Origin: Minisyncoccota bacterium
GTDB lineage: Bacteria; Patescibacteriota; Minisyncoccia; Phycocordibacterales; UBA9973
NCBI GenBank assembly: GCA_035353995.1
Contig: DAOQAL010000002.1
Coordinates: 99,762 to 163,761 of the forward strand
Length of the DNA stretch: 64,000 bases
Direction of reading: 5' to 3'
Shown here one piece after another: positions 26,145-53,585 of this stretch. Positions within the stretch are counted from its first letter, which is position 1, and every line of letters starts with the position of its first letter. Made by a program: the position numbers and the translations under genes. Under the pieces are notes generated by a model. That model had not been told where the DNA came from. It was given only the letters and a program-made list of their open reading frames with translations, and searched no databases.

Positions 26145-26215
26145 GGGCGATTAGTTAAGTGGTATAACTACGGTCTCCAAAACCGTTGTCGGGAGTTCGA
26201 TTCTCTCATCGCCCG
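26145..26215 (+). tRNA. tRNA-Trp (anticodon CCA)
   Basis: Cloverleaf folded by hand. Acceptor GGGCGAT/ATCGCCC, anticodon stem ACGGT/ACCGT with loop CTCCAAA, and T-arm GGGAG-TTCGATT-CTCTC. The 3' CCA is not encoded. Confidence 0.85.
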
Positions 26216-26251
26216 CTACAACAAGCACAGGACAGCTTAATGCTGTCCGAA
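26211..26251. repeat. direct repeat copy 1 (tRNA-Trp 3' end plus downstream GGACAG-loop-CTGTCC hairpin)
   Basis: GCCCGCTACAACAAGCACAGGACAGCTTAATGCTGTCCGA recurs at 27291-27335 with 2 mismatches. Att-like. Confidence 0.55.
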
Positions 26252-26263
26252 AGCGTACTCGCG

Positions 26264-26358
26264 TTTCTCTCATCGCCCGCCTTCGCTCGCAGTAGCGAGC
26301 TACGGCGGGTAAAACCCGTTAGTAGTTCCGCGAAGGCGAGAAGGTATCATGTATTAAC
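26264..26358. other. partial duplicate of tRNA-Trp T-arm/acceptor (TCTCTCATCGCCCGCC) followed by GC-rich nested hairpins
   Basis: Sixteen nt identical to tRNA positions 26203-26218, then CCCGCC...GGCGGG enclosing GCTCGC-AGTA-GCGAGC, then CCTTCGC...GCGAAGG. G+C is far above the local background. Confidence 0.5.
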
Positions 26359-26430
26359 GACCCCATAGGTCTTGCCTCTGGGGTACTCTGGGGTAACTCT
26401 CGACCCCATAGGTCTTGCCTCTGGGGTACA
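26359..26430. repeat. island palindrome family, copies 1-2 (tandem)
   Basis: (C)GACCCCATAGGTCTTGCCTCTGGGGTA repeated twice back to back. Copy 1 carries an internal CTCTGGGGTA duplication. Confidence 0.7.
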
Positions 26431-26566
26431 GAAGGCCCGCTACACCTTGATTTATTTTCTAACTATGTTATTATGCAGATAATGATAGTTTTTTGACATT
26501 CGGTTTTATTGGTTTCCAAACGAGATAAATAATTGTCTTTTGTGGAAACCTTTAAAACCATAAAAA

Positions 26567-27160
26567 ATGAAAAGAATATTTTCAACATTAAGTCCAAAAT
26601 ATGTTTTGGTCTCTTTCTCCAAAGACGGAAAAAGAAAAAGAATAATTCTAAAAGAATTTGGAGTCTGTAGTATTGGCACATATGAAAACATAAAAGCCAT
26701 AGAAAGTGCCCTTACGGATTCCGGTGTTTATCTGACTGACTTGGTCAAGAAAACTATTTCTAGCACAGCTTTTAAATTTACAAGACAAAAAAAAGTTCAA
26801 CTATTCATTCAGATTTCAGCCTCTGATCTTGGCTTCAAAAATGGTGGTAGGTATAAGGATATTATTAACAGCATATTAGGTGCTGTGGTGATATTACGAG
26901 GGAGAAAATACATAGTAGAGTTTTGTCTTCCCGAAGTTGCCTTGTATTTACGTCTACAGTATAAAAATCAACCAGTAGAACCAATTGAAGTTGAAGAGCG
27001 AGTTGATGTTGTTATGGAGCCGATAAAAGGAGAAAGGAATGATTATGTTTTACGCCTAGTGCACGATACAGAAGGAATAGCTTTAGCAGGACATCCTGCT
27101 CATGAAAATTGTCCAAGATATTCCGGTGATAAATTTATTTTTTCTCTGCGTGCCAAGTAA
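26567..27160 (+). CDS. hypothetical protein (sole gene in the direct-repeat-bounded 1.08 kb unit)
   Basis: 197 aa ORF with no recognised motif. G+C is higher than host genes. Confidence 0.4.
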   Translation: MKRIFSTLSPKYVLVSFSKDGKRKRIILKEFGVCSIGTYENIKAIESALTDSGVYLTDLVKKTISSTAFKFTRQKKVQLFIQISASDLGFKNGGRYKDIINSILGAVVILRGRKYIVEFCLPEVALYLRLQYKNQPVEPIEVEERVDVVMEPIKGERNDYVLRLVHDTEGIALAGHPAHENCPRYSGDKFIFSLRAK

Positions 27161-27174
27161 TGGCTAGGTTCTAA

Positions 27175-27210
27175 GGGGTTGTTATTTTTTTACGATGACA
27201 ACCCTTTTTT
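27175..27210 (+). terminator. intrinsic terminator
   Basis: GGGTTGT ... ACAACCC stem followed by a T6 run, directly after the 26567 ORF stop. Confidence 0.5.
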
Positions 27211-27290
27211 ATTTCCCCAAACCAATAAATTCCCCAATACTAACCATAACTAAAGGATAGTATTTCAAAAGTTCTGAAATTCCTATACTA

Positions 27291-27335
27291 AGCCCGCTAC
27301 AACAAGCACAGGACAGATTAATGCTGTCCGATAAG
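27291..27335. repeat. direct repeat copy 2 (att-like)
   Basis: AGCCCGCTACAACAAGCACAGGACAGATTAATGCTGTCCGATAAG. Compare with 26211-26251. Confidence 0.55.
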
Positions 27336-27364
27336 TAGTTTTTAATTATGATATAATTTAATTT

Positions 27365-27982
27365 ATGAAACTTATAATTTTTGATTGGTCTGGAGTAATA
27401 AAAGATGGATTGGAGAGCAACTTGTGGATTTGTAATAAAATATTTGAAAAATTCGGAGTACCAACTATTTCACTTGAGGAATTTAAAGAAAATTATGAAC
27501 TTCCTTACATGAATTTTTTTAAGAAATATATTCCTAGTCTAACTCTTGAAGAAGAACGAATTATATATAAAAAATATATATTTGATATAAATTGTCCAAA
27601 ATCTAAATCGTGCTTAGGTATTATTGAATTAATTAAGAAACTAAAAGAAAATAATTATCACTTAGCAGTGGTAAGCTCTGATTTTCCAGGAACAATTTTT
27701 GCAGAAATAAAAGAGTATGGGTTGGAAAATATTTTTGATGATGTAATTACAGGTATATATAATAAACTCGAAGGTGTTAATAATGTTATAAAAAAAAGAA
27801 ATTTTGATTTAAGTAATACTTTTTTTGTTGGTGATACTAATCATGAAATAGAAGTGGCAAGACAGGCAGGTATAAAAAGCATAGCAGTAACTTGGGGGTT
27901 TTGTTCTGAGCAAAAACTTAAATTAGAAAATCCAGATTATCTTGTGCATAATTCAAATGAATTAGAAAAGATTCTTTTGTAA
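27365..27982 (+). CDS. HAD-superfamily hydrolase-like protein
   Basis: N-terminal IIFDWSGVI (motif I with DWSG rather than DxDG) and GDTNHEIEVARQAG (motif IV-like). Length 205 aa. Confidence 0.45.
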   Translation: MKLIIFDWSGVIKDGLESNLWICNKIFEKFGVPTISLEEFKENYELPYMNFFKKYIPSLTLEEERIIYKKYIFDINCPKSKSCLGIIELIKKLKENNYHLAVVSSDFPGTIFAEIKEYGLENIFDDVITGIYNKLEGVNNVIKKRNFDLSNTFFVGDTNHEIEVARQAGIKSIAVTWGFCSEQKLKLENPDYLVHNSNELEKILL

Positions 27983-28053
27983 ATCTTGTGTACATTGTGC
28001 ACTTTATAGATAAATTAAATCTACAATACTTATCCCCAAAAAAACAAAAATAA

Positions 28054-28080
28054 GCCCCCGCAAAAAAATTTTGCGGAGGC
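28054..28080. terminator. bidirectional terminator hairpin
   Basis: GCCCCCGCAAAA-AAA-TTTTGCGGAGGC, a 12-bp stem with one mismatch, flanked by A/T runs. It lies between convergent genes. Confidence 0.5.
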
Positions 28081-28142
28081 TTAAGTGTTTAAGAGTTAAA
28101 ATAATCTGGGAGATTATTTTAAGGTCCTCAAGTAATCAAGTA

Positions 28143-28943
28143 TCACTTCCTAGCGACCGACAAACCGAGATCGCTACTGCGGTGACTATCCCAGTAGCCG
28201 CCGACGTTCAGACCCCCGCCGTCAAAGAAGCCGACGTTGACGTGATCGCCGCCCGAGTCGAGGCTTGATGTGCGGACATAAATTCCGCCAAACAAGTAAA
28301 CGTCTCTGACTGCTTTGTAGGTTGTGATTGCCCAGGTGAATTCAGCAGAATTCGGTACAGTTTCAACATCGGAAATCAGGGTTTGCTGTTCTTCCCAGTT
28401 TTTAGAAGTTGATTCGGGGACAGGGTTCTTGCGAATCATGTACCATTTTGTTTCAACTTTGTCTTTCTGTGAAAAATTCTGATCAGCATACCATCCACCA
28501 TCTTTTGAGTAGAAGTAACCATTTTTCATGGTACGAATCTCAAGAAGAGACATTGGACGGTTGGGACCAGCGACAAGCATGTAACTGTTGTCACGGCACC
28601 ATTCCAGAATTTCTTGTGCAGGAACTGTTTCGCCGAACTTGGCAAGCTGTTCTTCGGTGTAAGTAACTCCTTTACGTGATTTCATCACGTCTTCAGGAGA
28701 AATGAAATCCTTACCGAGAATTGTGCGAACCAGTTCATAATCTGGAGCTTTCATGGAGAAACGCTTGATACCTGTAAGCAGGTAAGCAGCGAATCCAGGA
28801 TTCTCATTCAGAACCTGTGCACTTTCTTCTGTCAGTCCAGCCTTATTGTATTGGGCACGAAACGATTCGGTAGCTCTCTGTCCTTTCGGACTGTCTGCGG
28901 TTACCAGTGCAGACGTGTTCAATGACTTTTTCATCGACATCAT
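28143..28943 (-). CDS. hypothetical protein, compositionally foreign (~50% G+C)
   Basis: 266 aa ORF. The DNA is conspicuously GC-rich (e.g. 28150-28280) against an AT-rich genome. It has a Gly-rich C-terminus and no recognised domain. Confidence 0.45.
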   Translation of the reverse strand: MMSMKKSLNTSALVTADSPKGQRATESFRAQYNKAGLTEESAQVLNENPGFAAYLLTGIKRFSMKAPDYELVRTILGKDFISPEDVMKSRKGVTYTEEQLAKFGETVPAQEILEWCRDNSYMLVAGPNRPMSLLEIRTMKNGYFYSKDGGWYADQNFSQKDKVETKWYMIRKNPVPESTSKNWEEQQTLISDVETVPNSAEFTWAITTYKAVRDVYLFGGIYVRTSSLDSGGDHVNVGFFDGGGLNVGGYWDSHRSSDLGLSVARK

Positions 28944-28990
28944 CCTTTATTGGTTTTACCGAAATCGCTCGGCAACGGCTTTTCTCGTTA

Positions 28991-29043
28991 ATGAGATGAG
29001 CTTTTTAAGTCCTATAATATAAGGCATAAAAAGCTCATCTCAT
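28991..29043. promoter_or_regulatory. perfect 17-bp inverted repeat (ATGAGATGAGCTTTTTA / TAAAAAGCTCATCTCAT) enclosing a TATAAT box
   Basis: Seen directly, immediately upstream of the 28143..28943(-) gene. Candidate operator or hairpin. Confidence 0.4.
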
Positions 29044-29116
29044 GGAAGTGATATTTTAAAAGAACTCTTTCTATTATATCATATATAATGCTTTTGTCAA
29101 TAAACTATTTTGCATT

Positions 29117-29159
29117 ACCCCATAGGTCACCCCATAGGTCTTGCCTCTGGGGTAACTCT
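29117..29159. repeat. island palindrome family, copy 3 (with a 12-nt partial duplicate in front)
   Basis: ACCCCATAGGTC + ACCCCATAGGTCTTGCCTCTGGGGTAACTCT. Confidence 0.7.
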
Positions 29160-29303
29160 TTACTTTTAATAACATTCGTGGTATTGTACCATTACAATGG
29201 TTCTTTGAAATTGAACATGATTATTACTTGTTTGGATTACCTTGCACTTCCTTTGGGAGTTTGAAGTAATCCAAATGAGTATAAACAATTAAAGACAATA
29301 GTT

Positions 29304-29633
29304 ATGGAAAAATTAAAAAAATACCGACTAGGTAATCAGCCTACTGAGTATGAACTTGTTACAGAATATTTAGGGTGGCTTCCTGAAGACGCATCAAGTT
29401 GGTGGGACGTGTTCCAAATAATGGTTTCTTCTTCTGAAATTACAGGTAAAGAAATAACCATTACTAATCCTGAAAAAAATAAAAAAATTACAATTATTAT
29501 TGACCATAGAATTGTAAAAGATGCATTTCCCATGTCTTTTTTCGTGGAGGAGAGAGCAAAAAATTGGTATGATTTTTGTATTGTATCAAGTAAGGATAAA
29601 CCATCTGAAAAATTTATTATTCCACTTCACTAA
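29304..29633 (+). CDS. hypothetical protein
   Basis: 109 aa ORF with no recognised motif. It is preceded by a 10-bp inverted repeat (TTTGGATTAC ... GTAATCCAAA, 29231-29274). Confidence 0.35.
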   Translation: MEKLKKYRLGNQPTEYELVTEYLGWLPEDASSWWDVFQIMVSSSEITGKEITITNPEKNKKITIIIDHRIVKDAFPMSFFVEERAKNWYDFCIVSSKDKPSEKFIIPLH

Positions 29634-29688
29634 GTAGGGGGTATCCGAGCTTGAAGAGCTGGCATTTTTGTGTCAGCTTTTTTTATTT

Positions 29689-29720
29689 CTACATAGGTCT
29701 TGCCTCTGGGGTAACGGAGT
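29689..29720. repeat. island palindrome family, copy 4 (5' arm degenerate)
   Basis: CTACATAGGTCTTGCCTCTGGGGTAACGGAG. Confidence 0.6.
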
Positions 29721-29808
29721 ATTTTTCCATACTTGACTTTATCAATTTAAAGATGTATTATTAAACTGATATTTTATATAGTTCTTAACATTTAAAAAGG
29801 AGGTTTAA

Positions 29809-30408
29809 GTGAAAGATTTATTTGTCTGGCTTACCGTGATCACAATGACCACGTTTATTATTATTTATGTATACCAGATTTATAAGCATAAAATTTTTCC
29901 AGCTCTGTCTACTTGGATTATATTTCTTTGTGGAGTTGGCCTAAGTTTTGTTACTTATATTATTTCAGAAAAAAATGATTTAAGTTCTGGCGTATTAAAT
30001 ACCATAGATCTCCTGAACGTAGTAGTTGTAACTATCGCAATAATTCTTTGGGGTAAAAGAAGTCTACATCTTAAGCCTTTTGAAAAATGGTATTTAGTTG
30101 CTGTTGGTTTAATTATTTTTTATGGAATAATAACTGGTGATGCATGGAGTTCAAATATCTTAACTCAAGTATTAATTAGTGTTGGATATTTTCCAACCAT
30201 ACACGGTTTATTAAAAAGTAGGGTAAACACAGAATCATTCATTGGGTGGGGAATTAACTTGCTTGTTAGCTTTTTTGCCTTATACCCAGCATCGGTTAAT
30301 GGTAACCTGCTTGCAATAATTTATGCAACCAGAGCAGCCGTCCTTATCTCTGTATTATTAATAATAATGGTTTATTGTGAATTGACTAAAAAGAAAAAAC
30401 TAGCCTAG
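29809..30408 (+). CDS. polytopic membrane protein with GTG start and strong SD
   Basis: 199 aa with about 6 TM helices. AAGGAGGT lies 7 nt upstream of GTG, which is atypical for this genome. It is homologous to the 61313..61912(-) ORF (shared YQI.K, W, and Y..T/RKK tail). Confidence 0.5.
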   Translation: MKDLFVWLTVITMTTFIIIYVYQIYKHKIFPALSTWIIFLCGVGLSFVTYIISEKNDLSSGVLNTIDLLNVVVVTIAIILWGKRSLHLKPFEKWYLVAVGLIIFYGIITGDAWSSNILTQVLISVGYFPTIHGLLKSRVNTESFIGWGINLLVSFFALYPASVNGNLLAIIYATRAAVLISVLLIIMVYCELTKKKKLA

Positions 30409-30457
30409 TACCGAAAGGGAAAGGCTTTTTTTATTTTATTCTTATGTCTTTGATACT

Positions 30458-30494
30458 GAGTTACCCCATAGGTCTTGCCTCTGGGGTAACTAGG
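30458..30494. repeat. island palindrome family, copy 5 (longest: 14-bp arms)
   Basis: GAGTTACCCCATAGGTCTTGCCTCTGGGGTAACTAGG. Confidence 0.7.
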
Positions 30495-30538
30495 TTTTAC
30501 TTGAACAATCTTTTTTCTTCCTTTTCAAAAGTTGTCAG

Positions 30539-30575
30539 AGCCAACCCCATAGGTCTTGCCTATGGGGTTCTTACC
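30539..30575. repeat. island palindrome family, copy 6 (perfect variant)
   Basis: GCCAACCCCATAGG-TCTTG-CCTATGGGGTTCTTACC. Eleven-bp perfect arms with CTCTGGGG changed to CTATGGGG. Confidence 0.7.
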
Positions 30576-30708: not shown

Positions 30709-31422
30709 ATGAAAAAAATCGTTTTTATTTTTGCAATGATGATGACATTCTCATCTTTGCAATTTGTGTACGCACAGGAAAATGTCGTACAGAACTGGAA
30801 TTTCCAAGAAGATTCGGACAATGACGGACAAGGAGATTATTGGACTTCACTTTGCTCTCCGTCTGTTTTTTCATGGAGCATCGTATACGGTGTTCAGTAT
30901 GTAAAGTGCGATTCAGTGTATTGTTACTCCGGGTCATTGGTGCAATATTTTCCGGATTCAATAATGCCTGGAACGTATATGCTTGAATTTGATACGTATT
31001 GTAGCAGAATTCTATGGCCATTTGTTGTACTACATGATTACAAACTGTCTTTCATCGGCACGGTTGTGCCGTCGACATGGCAACACTACGAAATTACATT
31101 TACTTCGTTAGCTTGGATAAGCGGTGTCGGTTTTTTAGCTGAGAGTGCAATTTCTCAAATAAAAATGGACAATGTAAAGTTGTATTTGCTATATGGAGTA
31201 GGATGTGAAAAACAAAAAGTAAAGCAATTAAAATTCTACCCGAATCCGGTCACTGATTACGTAAATATTTATTCATACGAAAATAAAAGAATCAGTATCT
31301 ACGATGTCTCCGGAACAAATTTTGGTCATTTTGATTTATTAAATGGTCAAAACAAGATCAATATGAGTTTTCTACCGTCTGGAATTTACATATTAGACGG
31401 ACAGAAAGTTCTGAAGAAATAG
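30709..31422 (+). CDS. secreted Cys-rich protein with Bacteroidetes-type T9SS (Por) C-terminal sorting domain
   Basis: Signal peptide ending ...VYAQ. The C-terminus KFYPNPVTDYVNIYSYENKRISIYDVSGTNF ... LPSGIYILDGQKVLKK matches the T9SS CTD consensus. G+C is elevated and there is no SD. Confidence 0.6.
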   Translation: MKKIVFIFAMMMTFSSLQFVYAQENVVQNWNFQEDSDNDGQGDYWTSLCSPSVFSWSIVYGVQYVKCDSVYCYSGSLVQYFPDSIMPGTYMLEFDTYCSRILWPFVVLHDYKLSFIGTVVPSTWQHYEITFTSLAWISGVGFLAESAISQIKMDNVKLYLLYGVGCEKQKVKQLKFYPNPVTDYVNIYSYENKRISIYDVSGTNFGHFDLLNGQNKINMSFLPSGIYILDGQKVLKK

Positions 31423-31439: not shown

Positions 31440-31472
31440 GGAGGTCTCAATCAAAATGAACCTCCTTTTTTT
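31440..31472. terminator. intrinsic terminator (bidirectional)
   Basis: GGAGGT ... ACCTCC hairpin plus T7 run, between convergent genes. Confidence 0.6.
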
Positions 31473-32592
31473 AATTTGTACTATCTACTAAATATTTTTG
31501 TATATTTTTTTGATGCTCTTCATAAGTTGCCGAGCAGTGTGTTACACGATTTTTATCATGCAAATAGTATAAGCAATCTGTTTCTGTTGGATTTAATACT
31601 GCTTCAATTGCTGGTATACCTGGATTTGATATAGGATGTGGTGGTAATCCTTTATATTTATATGTATTAAAAGGGGAGTCACTTTCTTTTTCAGAAATAG
31701 TAATTGGAGCCCACCAACCATTTCCGATATCTCCTCGTGCGTATTGTAACGTTGCGTCTACACCTAAAAACATATTTTGGTTTAGTCTGTTCCATAAAAT
31801 TCCAGCAATTAATGGTATATCAGCATTATTTGATGCTTCTCTTTGAACTATTGATGCTAAAGTCAATGCTCTTGCCCATTTTATATTTTTTTCTGTAAAT
31901 TTAGGTAAATAAGAAACAAATTTTTCATTAAATTTTGATATTAAACGTTTTGCCATTAAAGATGGCTCTTCTGTAACAGGTATTAAATATGTATCAGGAT
32001 AATAAACACCTTCTATATATTCTTTACTTACGGCTGTGTCTTTTGTTATCCAATCATTTTTTTGTTTTGAAGACCAATTAAAAGTATCTGCAAGAATTGT
32101 TGCTATTTCTTCTTTTCTCAATCCTTCTTTTATTACTACCCATTTCATATAAGGATTCCCATGTAATACTTTATTAATTTGAGATTCTGTCATTTCTTTT
32201 GATAATTTATATGCTCCACTGGAAACTTGATTTTTTTCTTTATTTAATATTTCTGTAAAACTTTTTGAATCTTTTATAAAACCAGCTTGTAATAAACTAT
32301 CTGCAATTTCTTCATTTGTTATATTTTTTTGTACTATAAAACGATCTGTGCCTTCAGGTAATACTTCTTCAGGTATTGTTTCAGTTTTTGTTGTAGGAGT
32401 AAGTACAACAGGTTCCTCTATTGTTTTTTCATTTTTTGATTGTGAGTTTTCTACATTTATATCTACATTGTTTTCATTTTCAGATTTATTTTTTTTAAAA
32501 AATACAAAATAGACAGCAATTAAAATAATTATTGCTATTAAAAGTATTAATAAAATTTTTTTCGTTTTAGTCATTTTTTTGGTGTAATCCAT
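31471..32592 (-). CDS. mltG: endolytic murein transglycosylase MltG (YceG family)
   Basis: N-terminal TM anchor. The C-terminal block NTYKYKGLPPHPISNPGIPAIEAV matches the YceG/MltG signature (NTY...GLPP.PI.NPG). Confidence 0.7.
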   Translation of the reverse strand: MDYTKKMTKTKKILLILLIAIIILIAVYFVFFKKNKSENENNVDINVENSQSKNEKTIEEPVVLTPTTKTETIPEEVLPEGTDRFIVQKNITNEEIADSLLQAGFIKDSKSFTEILNKEKNQVSSGAYKLSKEMTESQINKVLHGNPYMKWVVIKEGLRKEEIATILADTFNWSSKQKNDWITKDTAVSKEYIEGVYYPDTYLIPVTEEPSLMAKRLISKFNEKFVSYLPKFTEKNIKWARALTLASIVQREASNNADIPLIAGILWNRLNQNMFLGVDATLQYARGDIGNGWWAPITISEKESDSPFNTYKYKGLPPHPISNPGIPAIEAVLNPTETDCLYYLHDKNRVTHCSATYEEHQKNIQKYLVDSTN

Positions 32593-46775: not shown

Positions 46776-46803
46776 TAGCTAGCAAGGACGGTCCTTGCTA
46801 GTC
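46776..46803. repeat. second palindrome family, copy A (AGCTAGCAAGGAC-G-GTCCTTGCTAG)
   Basis: Seen directly. Eleven-bp perfect arms. It overlaps the stop codon of the 46798 ORF. Confidence 0.7.
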
Positions 46804-47334: not shown

Positions 47335-47450
47335 AAAGTAAGTATATCAGAAATATAAATTAAACTTAATATTCTACAAAAAGATGTATCTAGGATACTA
47401 TATAACTAGAGCTAGAACTTTTTGATTCCTTACCCTGCAATATTATTTTT

Positions 47451-47496
47451 AGCTAGCAAGGACGGTCCTTAGCTAGCAAGGACGGTCCTTGCTAGT
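47451..47496. repeat. second palindrome family, tandem copies (20-nt unit AGCTAGCAAGGACGGTCCTT x2.3) in the divergent promoter region
   Basis: Seen directly, between 46798(-) and 47545(+). Confidence 0.7.
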
Positions 47497-48705: not shown

Positions 48706-48733
48706 TAGCTAGCAAGGACCGTCCTTGCTAGTC
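48706..48733. repeat. second palindrome family, copy C (TAGCTAGCAAGGAC-C-GTCCTTGCTAG)
   Basis: Seen directly, downstream of the S8-like gene after a short GC-rich patch (48607-48700). Confidence 0.7.
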
Positions 48734-51047: not shown

Positions 51048-51053
51048 AAATCT

Positions 51054-51134
51054 GGTCGCGTAAAAGCTAAAGCTCACGCGACTCACGATACATTAATATT
51101 GGTCGCGTAAAAGCTAAAGCTCACGCGACTCACG
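51054..51134. repeat. two identical 34-nt direct repeats (GGTCGCGTAAAAGCTAAAGCTCACGCGACTCACG), each a hairpin
   Basis: Copies at 51054-51087 and 51101-51134, upstream of the GIY-YIG gene. Confidence 0.75.
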
Positions 51135-51895: not shown

Positions 51896-51934
51896 AAATA
51901 AAAAAGCTTGGTCGTAATTAGCCAAGCTTTTTTG
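51896..51934. terminator. terminator hairpin, copy A of a 40-nt direct repeat (AAATAAAAAAGCTTGGTCGTAATT[A/G]GCCAAGCTTTTTT)
   Basis: Hairpin AAAGCTTGG-loop-CCAAGCTTT flanked by A and T runs, downstream of the purB stop. Confidence 0.65.
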
Positions 51935-53444: not shown

Positions 53445-53547
53445 GTTTTTGGTTTTTAGGTGAATGAATGATTTTATGGGAATATATATGGTTGTTTAAG
53501 AACTAAATGTGATTTTACATTAACATTTAATTAAGTAGGTTGTCAAA

Positions 53548-53585
53548 TAAAAAAGCTTGGTCGTAATTGGCCAAGCTTTTTTAGT
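53548..53585. terminator. terminator hairpin, copy B of the 40-nt direct repeat
   Basis: AAATAAAAAAGCTTGGTCGTAATTGGCCAAGCTTTTTT, upstream of the purB promoter region. Confidence 0.6.

Follow-up and report, generated by a model that had tools for sequence, protein, structure and literature searches.

The question raised by the stretch of DNA analysed here, a 64,000-nucleotide (nt) window of contig DAOQAL010000002.1 from a Minisyncoccota bacterium (assembly GCA_035353995.1, positions 99,762 to 163,761 of the forward strand), is what six near-identical palindromes are doing in the spacers of a small variable island downstream of a tRNA-Trp gene. A preliminary description had offered three options: recombination sites of a gene-capture system serviced in trans, bidirectional terminators shared between cassettes, or an element of the MITE (miniature inverted-repeat transposable element) or REP (repetitive extragenic palindromic) type that proliferates locally. 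Only the last of these is favoured by the results, through the bracketing of a transposase gene by the same hairpin in related genomes and through a T/C mismatch and a terminal extension that window copies have in common. The palindromes are probably REP-type elements, the cognate hairpin of a HUH/Y1 single-stranded DNA (ssDNA) transposase of relatives that resembles RAYTs (REP-associated tyrosine transposases), and not recombination sites of the cassettes.

Searching the window with the pattern CCCCATAGGTCTTGCCYMTGGGG at up to 3 mismatches returned six matches, all on the + strand, where shuffling gave an expectation of 0.00 matches (100 shuffles). The cores start at 26361, 26404, 29130, 29689 (2 mismatches), 30464 and 30545, which agrees with the positions first described, and the copies conform to CCCCATAGGTCTTGCC[T][C/A]TGGGG over a span of 26.36-30.57 kb. 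All six are intergenic, as had been noted, and occupy four of the six island spacers. Their start-to-start spacings of 43, 2726, 559, 775 and 81 nt are irregular, in keeping with the earlier statement that they are not CRISPR repeats. Tolerating up to 4 substitutions revealed no seventh copy in the window, and 13 kb of extra flank beyond it has none. Folded as ssDNA, the 35-nt local consensus forms a 5-nt loop on a stem of 11+3 bp in which one T/C pair is mismatched, with a fold energy of -12.7 kcal/mol (z = -6.3).

A search beyond the window, which the preliminary description had proposed, recovered the palindrome widely. Scanning one genome per bacterial and archaeal species (596 Gb) with the exact 23-mer, two positions of which were left free, gave 54 matches at 48 loci in 27 other species-level assemblies, all of them Patescibacteria, where by our own arithmetic about 0.3 matches are expected by chance for 21 fixed bases. 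The carriers are labelled Nomurabacteria, Paceibacterota and Minisyncoccia, together with some metagenome-assembled genomes labelled Saccharibacteria. The 23-mer had zero matches in viral contigs, giving no sign of a phage origin. The term island-restricted is accordingly correct for the 64-kb window and its 13-kb flank and incorrect for the family, and, as regards related genomes, the claim of island specificity falls with the copies that lie there at ordinary gene ends. The flanks are unrelated between loci, and the conserved unit is (T)A-core-T(A), with A at position -1 in 58 and T at position +1 in 56 of 60 copies; the flank logo over these copies reads N-Y-T-A ahead of the core and T-A/T behind it. 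A minority carry longer complementary extensions of varied sequence, above the level obtained by shuffling partners. About 20 of the 60 copies lie within long open reading frames (ORFs), about 10 overlap gene 3' ends and the others are mostly within about 40 nt of the end of a neighbouring gene. Most copies elsewhere are solitary and situated at the ends of core genes or within them. The family is dispersed within genomes at low copy number, over 4 contigs in JANLHG (7 copies) and over 8 contigs in JBAPNK (11 copies); a 598-kb scaffold scanned for exact matches holds only 2, both gene-flanking. A metagenome scan with the T/C variant of the window plus TA found only 3 loci, none from the species of the window.

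The partner of the hairpin is apparent from these relatives. Two inverted copies about 700 bp apart bracket an ORF of 216-222 aa in four loci fetched from other genomes (L048, L009, L012 and L043), and the bracketing is repeated in further assemblies (L066-L070), making at least five species overall. The 5' copy stops 23 nt before the ATG and the inverted 3' copy lies at the stop codon; at one further locus, L015, both bracketing copies are direct, not inverted. The encoded protein of about 217 aa matches Pfam Y1_Tnp (E 1e-8 and 2e-9), and its best NCBIfam model is NF047646 REP_Tyr_transpos. The motifs PNHFH (HUH) and Y-x-H-L-N-P (Y-I-H-L-N-P) are invariant in 19 homologues. The best fold match of an AlphaFold model of the protein (pLDDT 85) was the structure of E. 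coli RAYT in complex with a REP hairpin, 4ER8 (E 2.3e-5, TM 0.63), followed by the TnpA proteins of ISDra2 and IS608. The family is very large, with 6180 clusters at E <= 1e-10. In several species the gene is found between dnaE and pth in conserved synteny, and after it the dnaE 3' end is duplicated over 30-45 nt.

Paralogues of the RAYT-like gene are accompanied by their own hairpins. In L071 a paralogue of 61% identity lies between AATGCACTAGG-tcttg-CCTAGTGCATT and its inverse, a hairpin that retains the loop and inner stem of the main one and is altered in the outer stem on both arms. A 54%-identical paralogue (L040) is bracketed by CTACGGAGGAGTTTCCTCCGTA, and the L040 genome also holds the main pair. 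A hairpin of its own for each enzyme lineage is a hallmark of REP-RAYT systems. In L035, TTTCGCAAGAACCGTTCTTGCGAAA stands in front of a partial RAYT gene, accompanied by incomplete tandem copies of itself, and resembles a second palindrome family of the window.

The RAYT units of several loci are flanked by direct duplications of the host target of 30-45 nt (L009 4040-4880, L043, L048 4340-4420), consisting of the dnaE 3' end that encodes EAVKEI*, and that of L015 (2250-3060) is flanked by a 40-nt repeat, caccaagtttacttgtggaaaaggtta.... These duplications are unusually long for a HUH element and are reminiscent of the 40-nt repeat downstream of the tRNA gene in the window. Many hairpin copies lie less than 100 nt from a contig end (at position 23 in L004, 83 in L020, 7 in L032 and 45 in L043), and most RAYT homologues are on contigs of less than 5 kb; the hairpin repeats evidently fragment metagenome assemblies of CPR (candidate phyla radiation) genomes.

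Copies within genes and the strand distribution speak for mobility of the element. In six species the hairpin lies in frame within a reverse-transcriptase gene (YADD, GLPLGNLTSQ; diversity-generating retroelement type), just before GLPLGNLTSQ, at L036 1482, L003 2522, L007 5398, L016 735, L030 3707 and L001 1757. The insert encodes NPIGKTYGV; in L001 that site holds the entire element in inverse orientation, reading NPIGLACGV. Alignment with the best solved homologue of the reverse transcriptase, 8UB7, has a gap of 9 residues precisely at the insert. The 23-mer is constant in these genes (0-1 mismatch, at the position of the stem mismatch) and the flanks vary between loci, with extra insertions at the same site in L016 and L030. 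Other in-frame hosts are PolA, PurL, a MurD-like ligase, UvrC, an alkylation-repair enzyme, DHODH, RNase H, a class-V aminotransferase and TsaE, and the PIGKTYGV reading is used by 13 of the 20 intragenic copies. The distribution is biased by strand: in 34 of 41 copies TCTTG is on the C-rich strand, and in 33 of 44 it is on the strand opposite to the majority coding one, some of these copies being orthologous. Such a bias would be expected if transposition were of the HUH type and dependent on single strands.

Based on these comparisons, the element may be described as a hairpin of 25-27 nt, (T)A-CCCCATAGG-TCTTG-CCT[A/C]TGGGG-T(A), extended locally to 35 nt, that would serve as the DNA substrate of a RAYT-like transposase, an enzyme that Paceibacteria-type Patescibacteria have conserved. 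If it works as TnpA-REP and the TnpA of IS200/IS605 do, this enzyme would recognise the folded hairpin on ssDNA, probably at the replication fork, cleave beside it and join it to DNA elsewhere, so that new copies are seeded. A single sub-lineage of the hairpin, marked by the T/C mismatch and a GTTA...TAAC extension, would then have multiplied in the spacers of the tRNA-Trp island. These spacers may have offered the longest dispensable DNA in a 91%-coding genome, in which copies would settle between a terminator and the next promoter, and the cassettes themselves are likely to have arrived by a separate process that left direct repeats resembling the tRNA 3' end.

The individual copies, all on the + strand, carry traces of this local history. 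Copy 1 (26357-26400, core 26361-26383) is the T/C-mismatch variant with a TAACTC extension, and its 3' arm CTCTGGGGTA is present twice in tandem at 26377-26396. Copy 2 (26401-26430, core 26404-26426) follows 43 nt after copy 1 in direct orientation and adjoins an att-core remnant, ACAGAAGGCCCGCTACA (26428-26445). The 5' arm of copy 3 (29117-29159, core 29130-29152), ACCCCATAGGTC, is doubled at 29118-29141, and its right extension is also TAACTC; this copy lies between the divergent promoters of a 266-aa gene (-) and a 109-aa gene (+). The 10-nt duplication in copy 1 and the 12-nt partial duplicate in copy 3, both recorded in the preliminary description, proved to be tandem. Copy 4 (29685-29720, core 29689-29711 with 2 mismatches) has a degenerate 5' arm, CTACATAGG, and a right extension TAACGG; it lies directly 3' of the terminator-like hairpin of the 109-aa gene, with a TTGACT -35 box 13 nt downstream. 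Copy 5 (30458-30494, core 30464-30486) is the full-length local form GAGTTACCCCATAGGTCTTGCCTCTGGGGTAACT with 14-bp arms. Copy 6 (30539-30575, core 30545-30567) is the perfect form found across the lineage, AACCCCATAGGTCTTGCCTATGGGGTT, with the perfect arm CCTATGGGG; its flanks differ from those of copies 1-5, and the -35 box of a 237-aa gene lies 23 nt downstream. Reading of the sequence thus bore out both the degenerate arm of copy 4 and the perfect stem of the last copy. The T/C mismatch is common to copies 1-5. The TAAC right part of the GTTA...TAAC extension is present in copies 1, 3, 4 and 5, and only one other locus has a TAAC right extension. Since the mismatch and the extension are shared by copies of the window, descent from one local master follows, and the data point to intragenomic amplification of one hairpin sub-lineage for five of the six copies.

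The island in which the copies lie is a 5.2-kb stretch between the tRNA-Trp gene (anticodon CCA; 26145-26216, +), its anchor, and mltG (31471-32592). Eleven assemblies from this population contain the island. The window has a G+C content of 25-33% over most of its length, is about 91% coding and includes the core genes mreB, frr, ddl, alr, murA, miaA, parB and relA; identical proteins in public databases bear the label Candidatus Paceibacterota. The island holds six small genes, encoding a 197-aa protein, a HAD hydrolase, the 266-aa protein, the 109-aa protein, a 199-aa membrane protein and the 237-aa protein, which has a type IX secretion system (T9SS) sorting tail. A 40-nt direct repeat begins within the tRNA gene: its first copy (26211-26250, +) comprises the last 6 nt of the tRNA and 34 nt downstream, is att-like and includes the hairpin GGACAGC-TTAAT-GCTGTCC. 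The second copy (27292-27331), with 98% identity to that at the tRNA-Trp 3' end, forms part of a cassette junction (27240-27331, +) in which a conserved left arm is followed by a decayed tRNA 3' half, AAAAGTTCTGAAATTCC...AAGCCCGCTACA, and then by the repeat. The make-up of the junction repeat is therefore a decayed tRNA 3' half, a GCCCGCTACA core and the tRNA-downstream hairpin. One full junction repeat is present in the window, with parts also at 26262-26280 and 26436-26445, and five are present in a relative (L054, 12403-17664), where a unit homologous to window positions 27224-27301 (77-85% identity) is repeated between cassettes.

Relatives with 73-76% identical Alr retain the order ddl-alr-L33-tRNA-Trp and vary in what comes next. 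The tRNA is followed by one Vut_1 gene and then miaA-murA-tRNA-Leu-parB in L055, by purine genes in L056 and by more than 10 kb of unrelated small genes in L054. Because the downstream content differs among these three, the island is a plasticity hot spot downstream of tRNA-Trp, and the repeated tRNA-3'-end-like unit is the signature of repeated site-specific insertion at a tRNA 3' end. None of the three has a copy of the palindrome within 5 mismatches, while junction repeats are present in L054, and it follows that the boundary repeats and the palindromes are two different things. The true cassette-boundary repeats of the island are the tRNA-3'-end-like direct repeats. Copies of the palindrome do flank single genes (those for the 109-aa and 199-aa proteins), and the preserved junction repeat is a different sequence. 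The idea that copies 3-6 each adjoin a decayed att junction was not supported by multiple alignment; the downstream similarity common to them is explained by -35/-10 promoter boxes, and only copy 2 adjoins a genuine att-core remnant. No integrase was found near the island, among the ORFs of 20-36 kb or among the six island proteins scanned against Pfam, and the island may represent an accretion system of CPR genomes that is satellite-type or served by an integrase in trans.

Several observations concern the cargo and surroundings of the island. The 266-aa gene (28143-28943, -) lies in about 1 kb of about 44% G+C within a genome of about 30%, has no family match and has a perfect TTGACA-16-TGnTATAAT promoter at 29100-29073. 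Assembly GCA_964524305.1 breaks within this gene, its contig ends overlapping by 54 nt at 28515-28568, and the Gly-rich C-terminus of the protein (…GGGLNVGGYWDSH…) might be a variable domain. The 237-aa protein (30709-31422, +) contains a Por/T9SS C-terminal sorting domain (PF18962, E 6e-10), an odd cargo for Patescibacteria, which suggests transfer from Bacteroidota-like donors. An L27 gene runs over the right end of the window and is followed by a prophage-like block (AAA_24, Phage_rep_O, ParB-methylase, DNA methylase, portal/Mu F) that starts about 1 kb past the window and extends to about 10 kb beyond it (L061 11999-20933).

Clustering of the copies in this island is accounted for in part, not wholly, by the availability of spacers. 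Non-coding DNA in the window amounts to 5.7 kb, of which the island has 27%; under random non-coding placement, the probability that all fall in the island is about 0.005 for four spacers and 0.0004 for six copies (0.27^4 to 0.27^6, own arithmetic). Within the spacers, the copies come after the terminator-like hairpin of the upstream gene, and the -35 box that follows is 10-23 nt further downstream. Three other genomes (L063-L065) have homologues of the 199-aa cassette (75%, 71% and 57% identity) with different neighbours, and no copy of the hairpin within 5 mismatches is near them. Nucleotide homology of this cassette to the window stops at 29790 and 30445, before both flanking hairpins, and from this it follows that the hairpins were inserted into the spacers and were not brought by the cassette.

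These findings bear directly on the idea that the hairpins move genes, which survives in one form that we consider unlikely. Cassettes bounded by same-strand hairpins might be moved between episymbiotic CPR genomes, the hairpins acting either as portable ends for a RAYT in trans (peel-and-paste) or as patches of homology for RecA, with exchange between species by recombination across their 25-35 identical nt. Such a process would make a REP-based gene-capture system layered over a tRNA-linked integration hot spot. It could draw on the direct orientation of all six copies, like the left and right ends of IS200/IS605 elements, on the 109-aa and 199-aa cassettes that each lie between two copies, on a core whose identity in 27 species constitutes portable homology, and on a cluster denser than non-coding space predicts. 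The hairpin-free homologues of the 199-aa cassette speak against it, as do the cassette array of more than 10 kb at the same tRNA-Trp in L054, which has five junction repeats and no palindromes, and the solitary copies at or in core genes elsewhere; moreover, no homologue of the island proteins was found in any of the 48 hairpin-bearing loci. An att- or attC-like role, in which a tyrosine recombinase of an integron or of integrase-serviced tandem islands would act on the palindromes, is highly improbable, even though single-gene cassettes form a tRNA-linked array in the island with no recombinase in cis, for which service in trans would be required. Integron attC sites have R''-L''...L'-R' cores (RYYYAAC...GTTRRRY), are 57-141 nt long and accompany an adjacent intI/attI. 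The arms of the palindromes read GTTAC...GTAAC, with the opposite polarity, and at 27-35 nt they are far shorter, so the earlier remark that attC cores are lacking is upheld; the junctions with the tRNA 3' end are another sequence, and copies within housekeeping genes are incompatible with an att role.

Selection for a host function at gene boundaries, as terminators, stabilisers of mRNA or binding sites of gyrase or nucleoid proteins, is also quite unlikely as the explanation, although such roles have been assigned to classical REPs (PMC3733652), the hairpin is stable, many copies of relatives lie 0-40 nt from gene 3' ends and those of the window lie just upstream of -35 boxes. A T-tract is missing from the stems, and the terminator-like hairpins of the cassettes are other structures: a terminator scan called 27173-27207, 28051-28083 and 29653-29682 and no REP stem, and where it did call part of a REP, solely at 29704-29719, it is the 3' arm of copy 4 that pairs with flanking sequence. 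The suggestion of shared terminators is weakened further by the third or so of relatives' copies that lie in frame within ORFs and by the occurrence of both orientations at one site, and a host function alone leaves the bracketing of the Y1 gene and the covarying variants unexplained. A reading of the palindromes as an Rfam RNA was rejected, with no Rfam match.

Assignment to the REP type with a RAYT-like partner is preferred over these alternatives, and several points weigh against it. NF047646 scores the protein at 43.9 bits, with an equivalog cut-off of 80, and a single-sequence search of PDB gave no RAYT match, a profile search reaching only ISDra2 at E about 0.5. By tblastn, no RAYT gene is present in the 64-kb window or its 13-kb flanks, nor are dnaE and pth in the window; an exact-sequence look-up traced two candidate RAYTs to other species (Hainich groundwater), not that of the window. 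Exact copies number only 2-11 per genome, far under classical REP populations, and several copies in relatives are orthologous, so that their counts are not independent events. No other fetched locus with six copies lacks a RAYT, the local cluster is not fully explained, and all six window copies are in the minority orientation relative to the strand bias of the relatives, a departure that would also suit mobilisation of cassettes. The hairpin has no GTAG/CGTC tag of the kind that marks tagged REPs (Di Nocera 2013); its logo is YTA, and only the L040 variant starts with CTAC.

Other repeats were observed along the window and in the fetched loci. Another accessory region, near tRNA-Gln and with DUF84 NTPase, subtilase, HEPN and GIY-YIG genes, has in three of its spacers (46776-46801, 47450-47495 and 48706-48731) a second palindrome family, TAGCTAGCAAGGAC(G/C)GTCCTTGCTAG. 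This family shows partial tandem duplication like that of the first family and is probably the cognate REP of another RAYT; a search with AGCAAGGACNGTCCTTGCT gave no match in the fetched loci. A two-copy repeat, AAAAAAGCTTGGTCGTAATT(A/G)GCCAAGCTTTTTT (51896-51933 and 53545-53582), is a terminator-like palindrome that flanks a 43%-GC Lyase_1 gene. An exact 35-nt tandem pair (51053-51087 and 51100-51134) lies beside tRNA-Gln and overlaps the start of a GIY-YIG gene. Small cassettes of unrelated CPR contigs are separated by the hairpin AGTCCCGA-loop-TCGGGA(C/T)T (L065 2410-2429 and 4563-4584; L071 1980-1999 and 8022-8046), which may be a further REP-like family.

For the window, these results remove the suggestion of a palindrome-based gene-capture system and leave the tRNA-3'-like junction repeats as the real cassette boundaries of the island. 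REP and RAYT have been studied almost only in Proteobacteria, and the case in Patescibacteria ties a very large RAYT-like family to a defined hairpin that is conserved at base level across species, tolerated in translation within essential genes and biased by strand. It offers a tractable model for the persistence of a domesticated single-strand transposase and its repeat under strong genome streamlining. In practice, the hairpins break assemblies and add 9-residue inserts to housekeeping proteins, and their recognition aids the finishing and annotation of CPR genomes. A literature search found no description of REP or RAYT in Patescibacteria/CPR, and one preprint has a K07491 hit in an archaeon only.

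Compared with known systems, the hairpin and its enzyme most resemble the REP/REPIN-RAYT systems of Proteobacteria, such as TnpA-REP/YafM of E. coli and the RAYT groups 2 and 3 of Pseudomonas. Both have a short GC-containing hairpin, a single HUH/Y1 gene between two inverted copies (the REPtron anatomy), conserved gene synteny that implies vertical inheritance, paralogues each with their own hairpin variant, and intragenic copies that include polA and uvr genes (PMC3733652), and the best structural match of the protein is 4ER8 from this group. Intragenic copies (notably in polA and uvr), multi-species families and a family clustered at few loci have been described for REPs, and RAYTs are vertically inherited and single-copy (PMC3733652; PMC5581495). 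REPs are also described as largely species-specific and as having a GTAG/GTGG guide (PMC6006769), neither of which is true of the Patescibacteria hairpin, whose core of 23-25 nt is identical in at least 28 species. Unlike REPINs, the copies are mostly single hairpins, and the pairs of the window at 43 and 81 nt spacing are direct and not inverted doublets. Copy number is very low, the protein of about 217 aa has a conserved C-terminal extension and falls under the NCBIfam equivalog cut-off, and the host is an ultra-small, densely coding CPR genome.

The IS200/IS605 insertion sequences insert at the lagging-strand template. IS608 and ISDra2 share with the present system the HUH/Y1 fold, as second-best structural matches, the strand-biased distribution of hairpins and, by analogy, hairpin recognition on ssDNA, and the direct orientation of the window copies resembles their left-end/right-end geometry. 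In contrast to them, the Patescibacteria gene is single-copy and syntenic rather than a multi-copy insertion sequence, has no TnpB, and in 4 of 5 species is flanked by hairpins in inverted rather than direct orientation. Rickettsia palindromic elements are similar in that they are in-frame palindromic inserts in functional protein-coding genes of a reduced genome (PMC3733652). RPE-1, at about 100-150 bp, exceeds the hairpin in length and is not linked to a bracketed transposase gene, whereas the Patescibacteria insert has 9 codons and an identifiable cognate Y1 gene. Among tRNA-linked tandem integrative islands, of which Prochlorococcus islands/tycheposons are an example, and integron arrays, it is the island and not the palindromes that finds a counterpart, with its single-gene cassettes beside a tRNA, repeated tRNA-3'-end-like junctions and no recombinase in cis; the palindromes differ from the junction repeats, and neither an integrase nor an attC was identified here. 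The kind of element, a selfish repeat, is known, and what is new is the lineage, a core invariant across species, the absence of a tag, the low copy number, the longer protein and the 9-codon coding insert.

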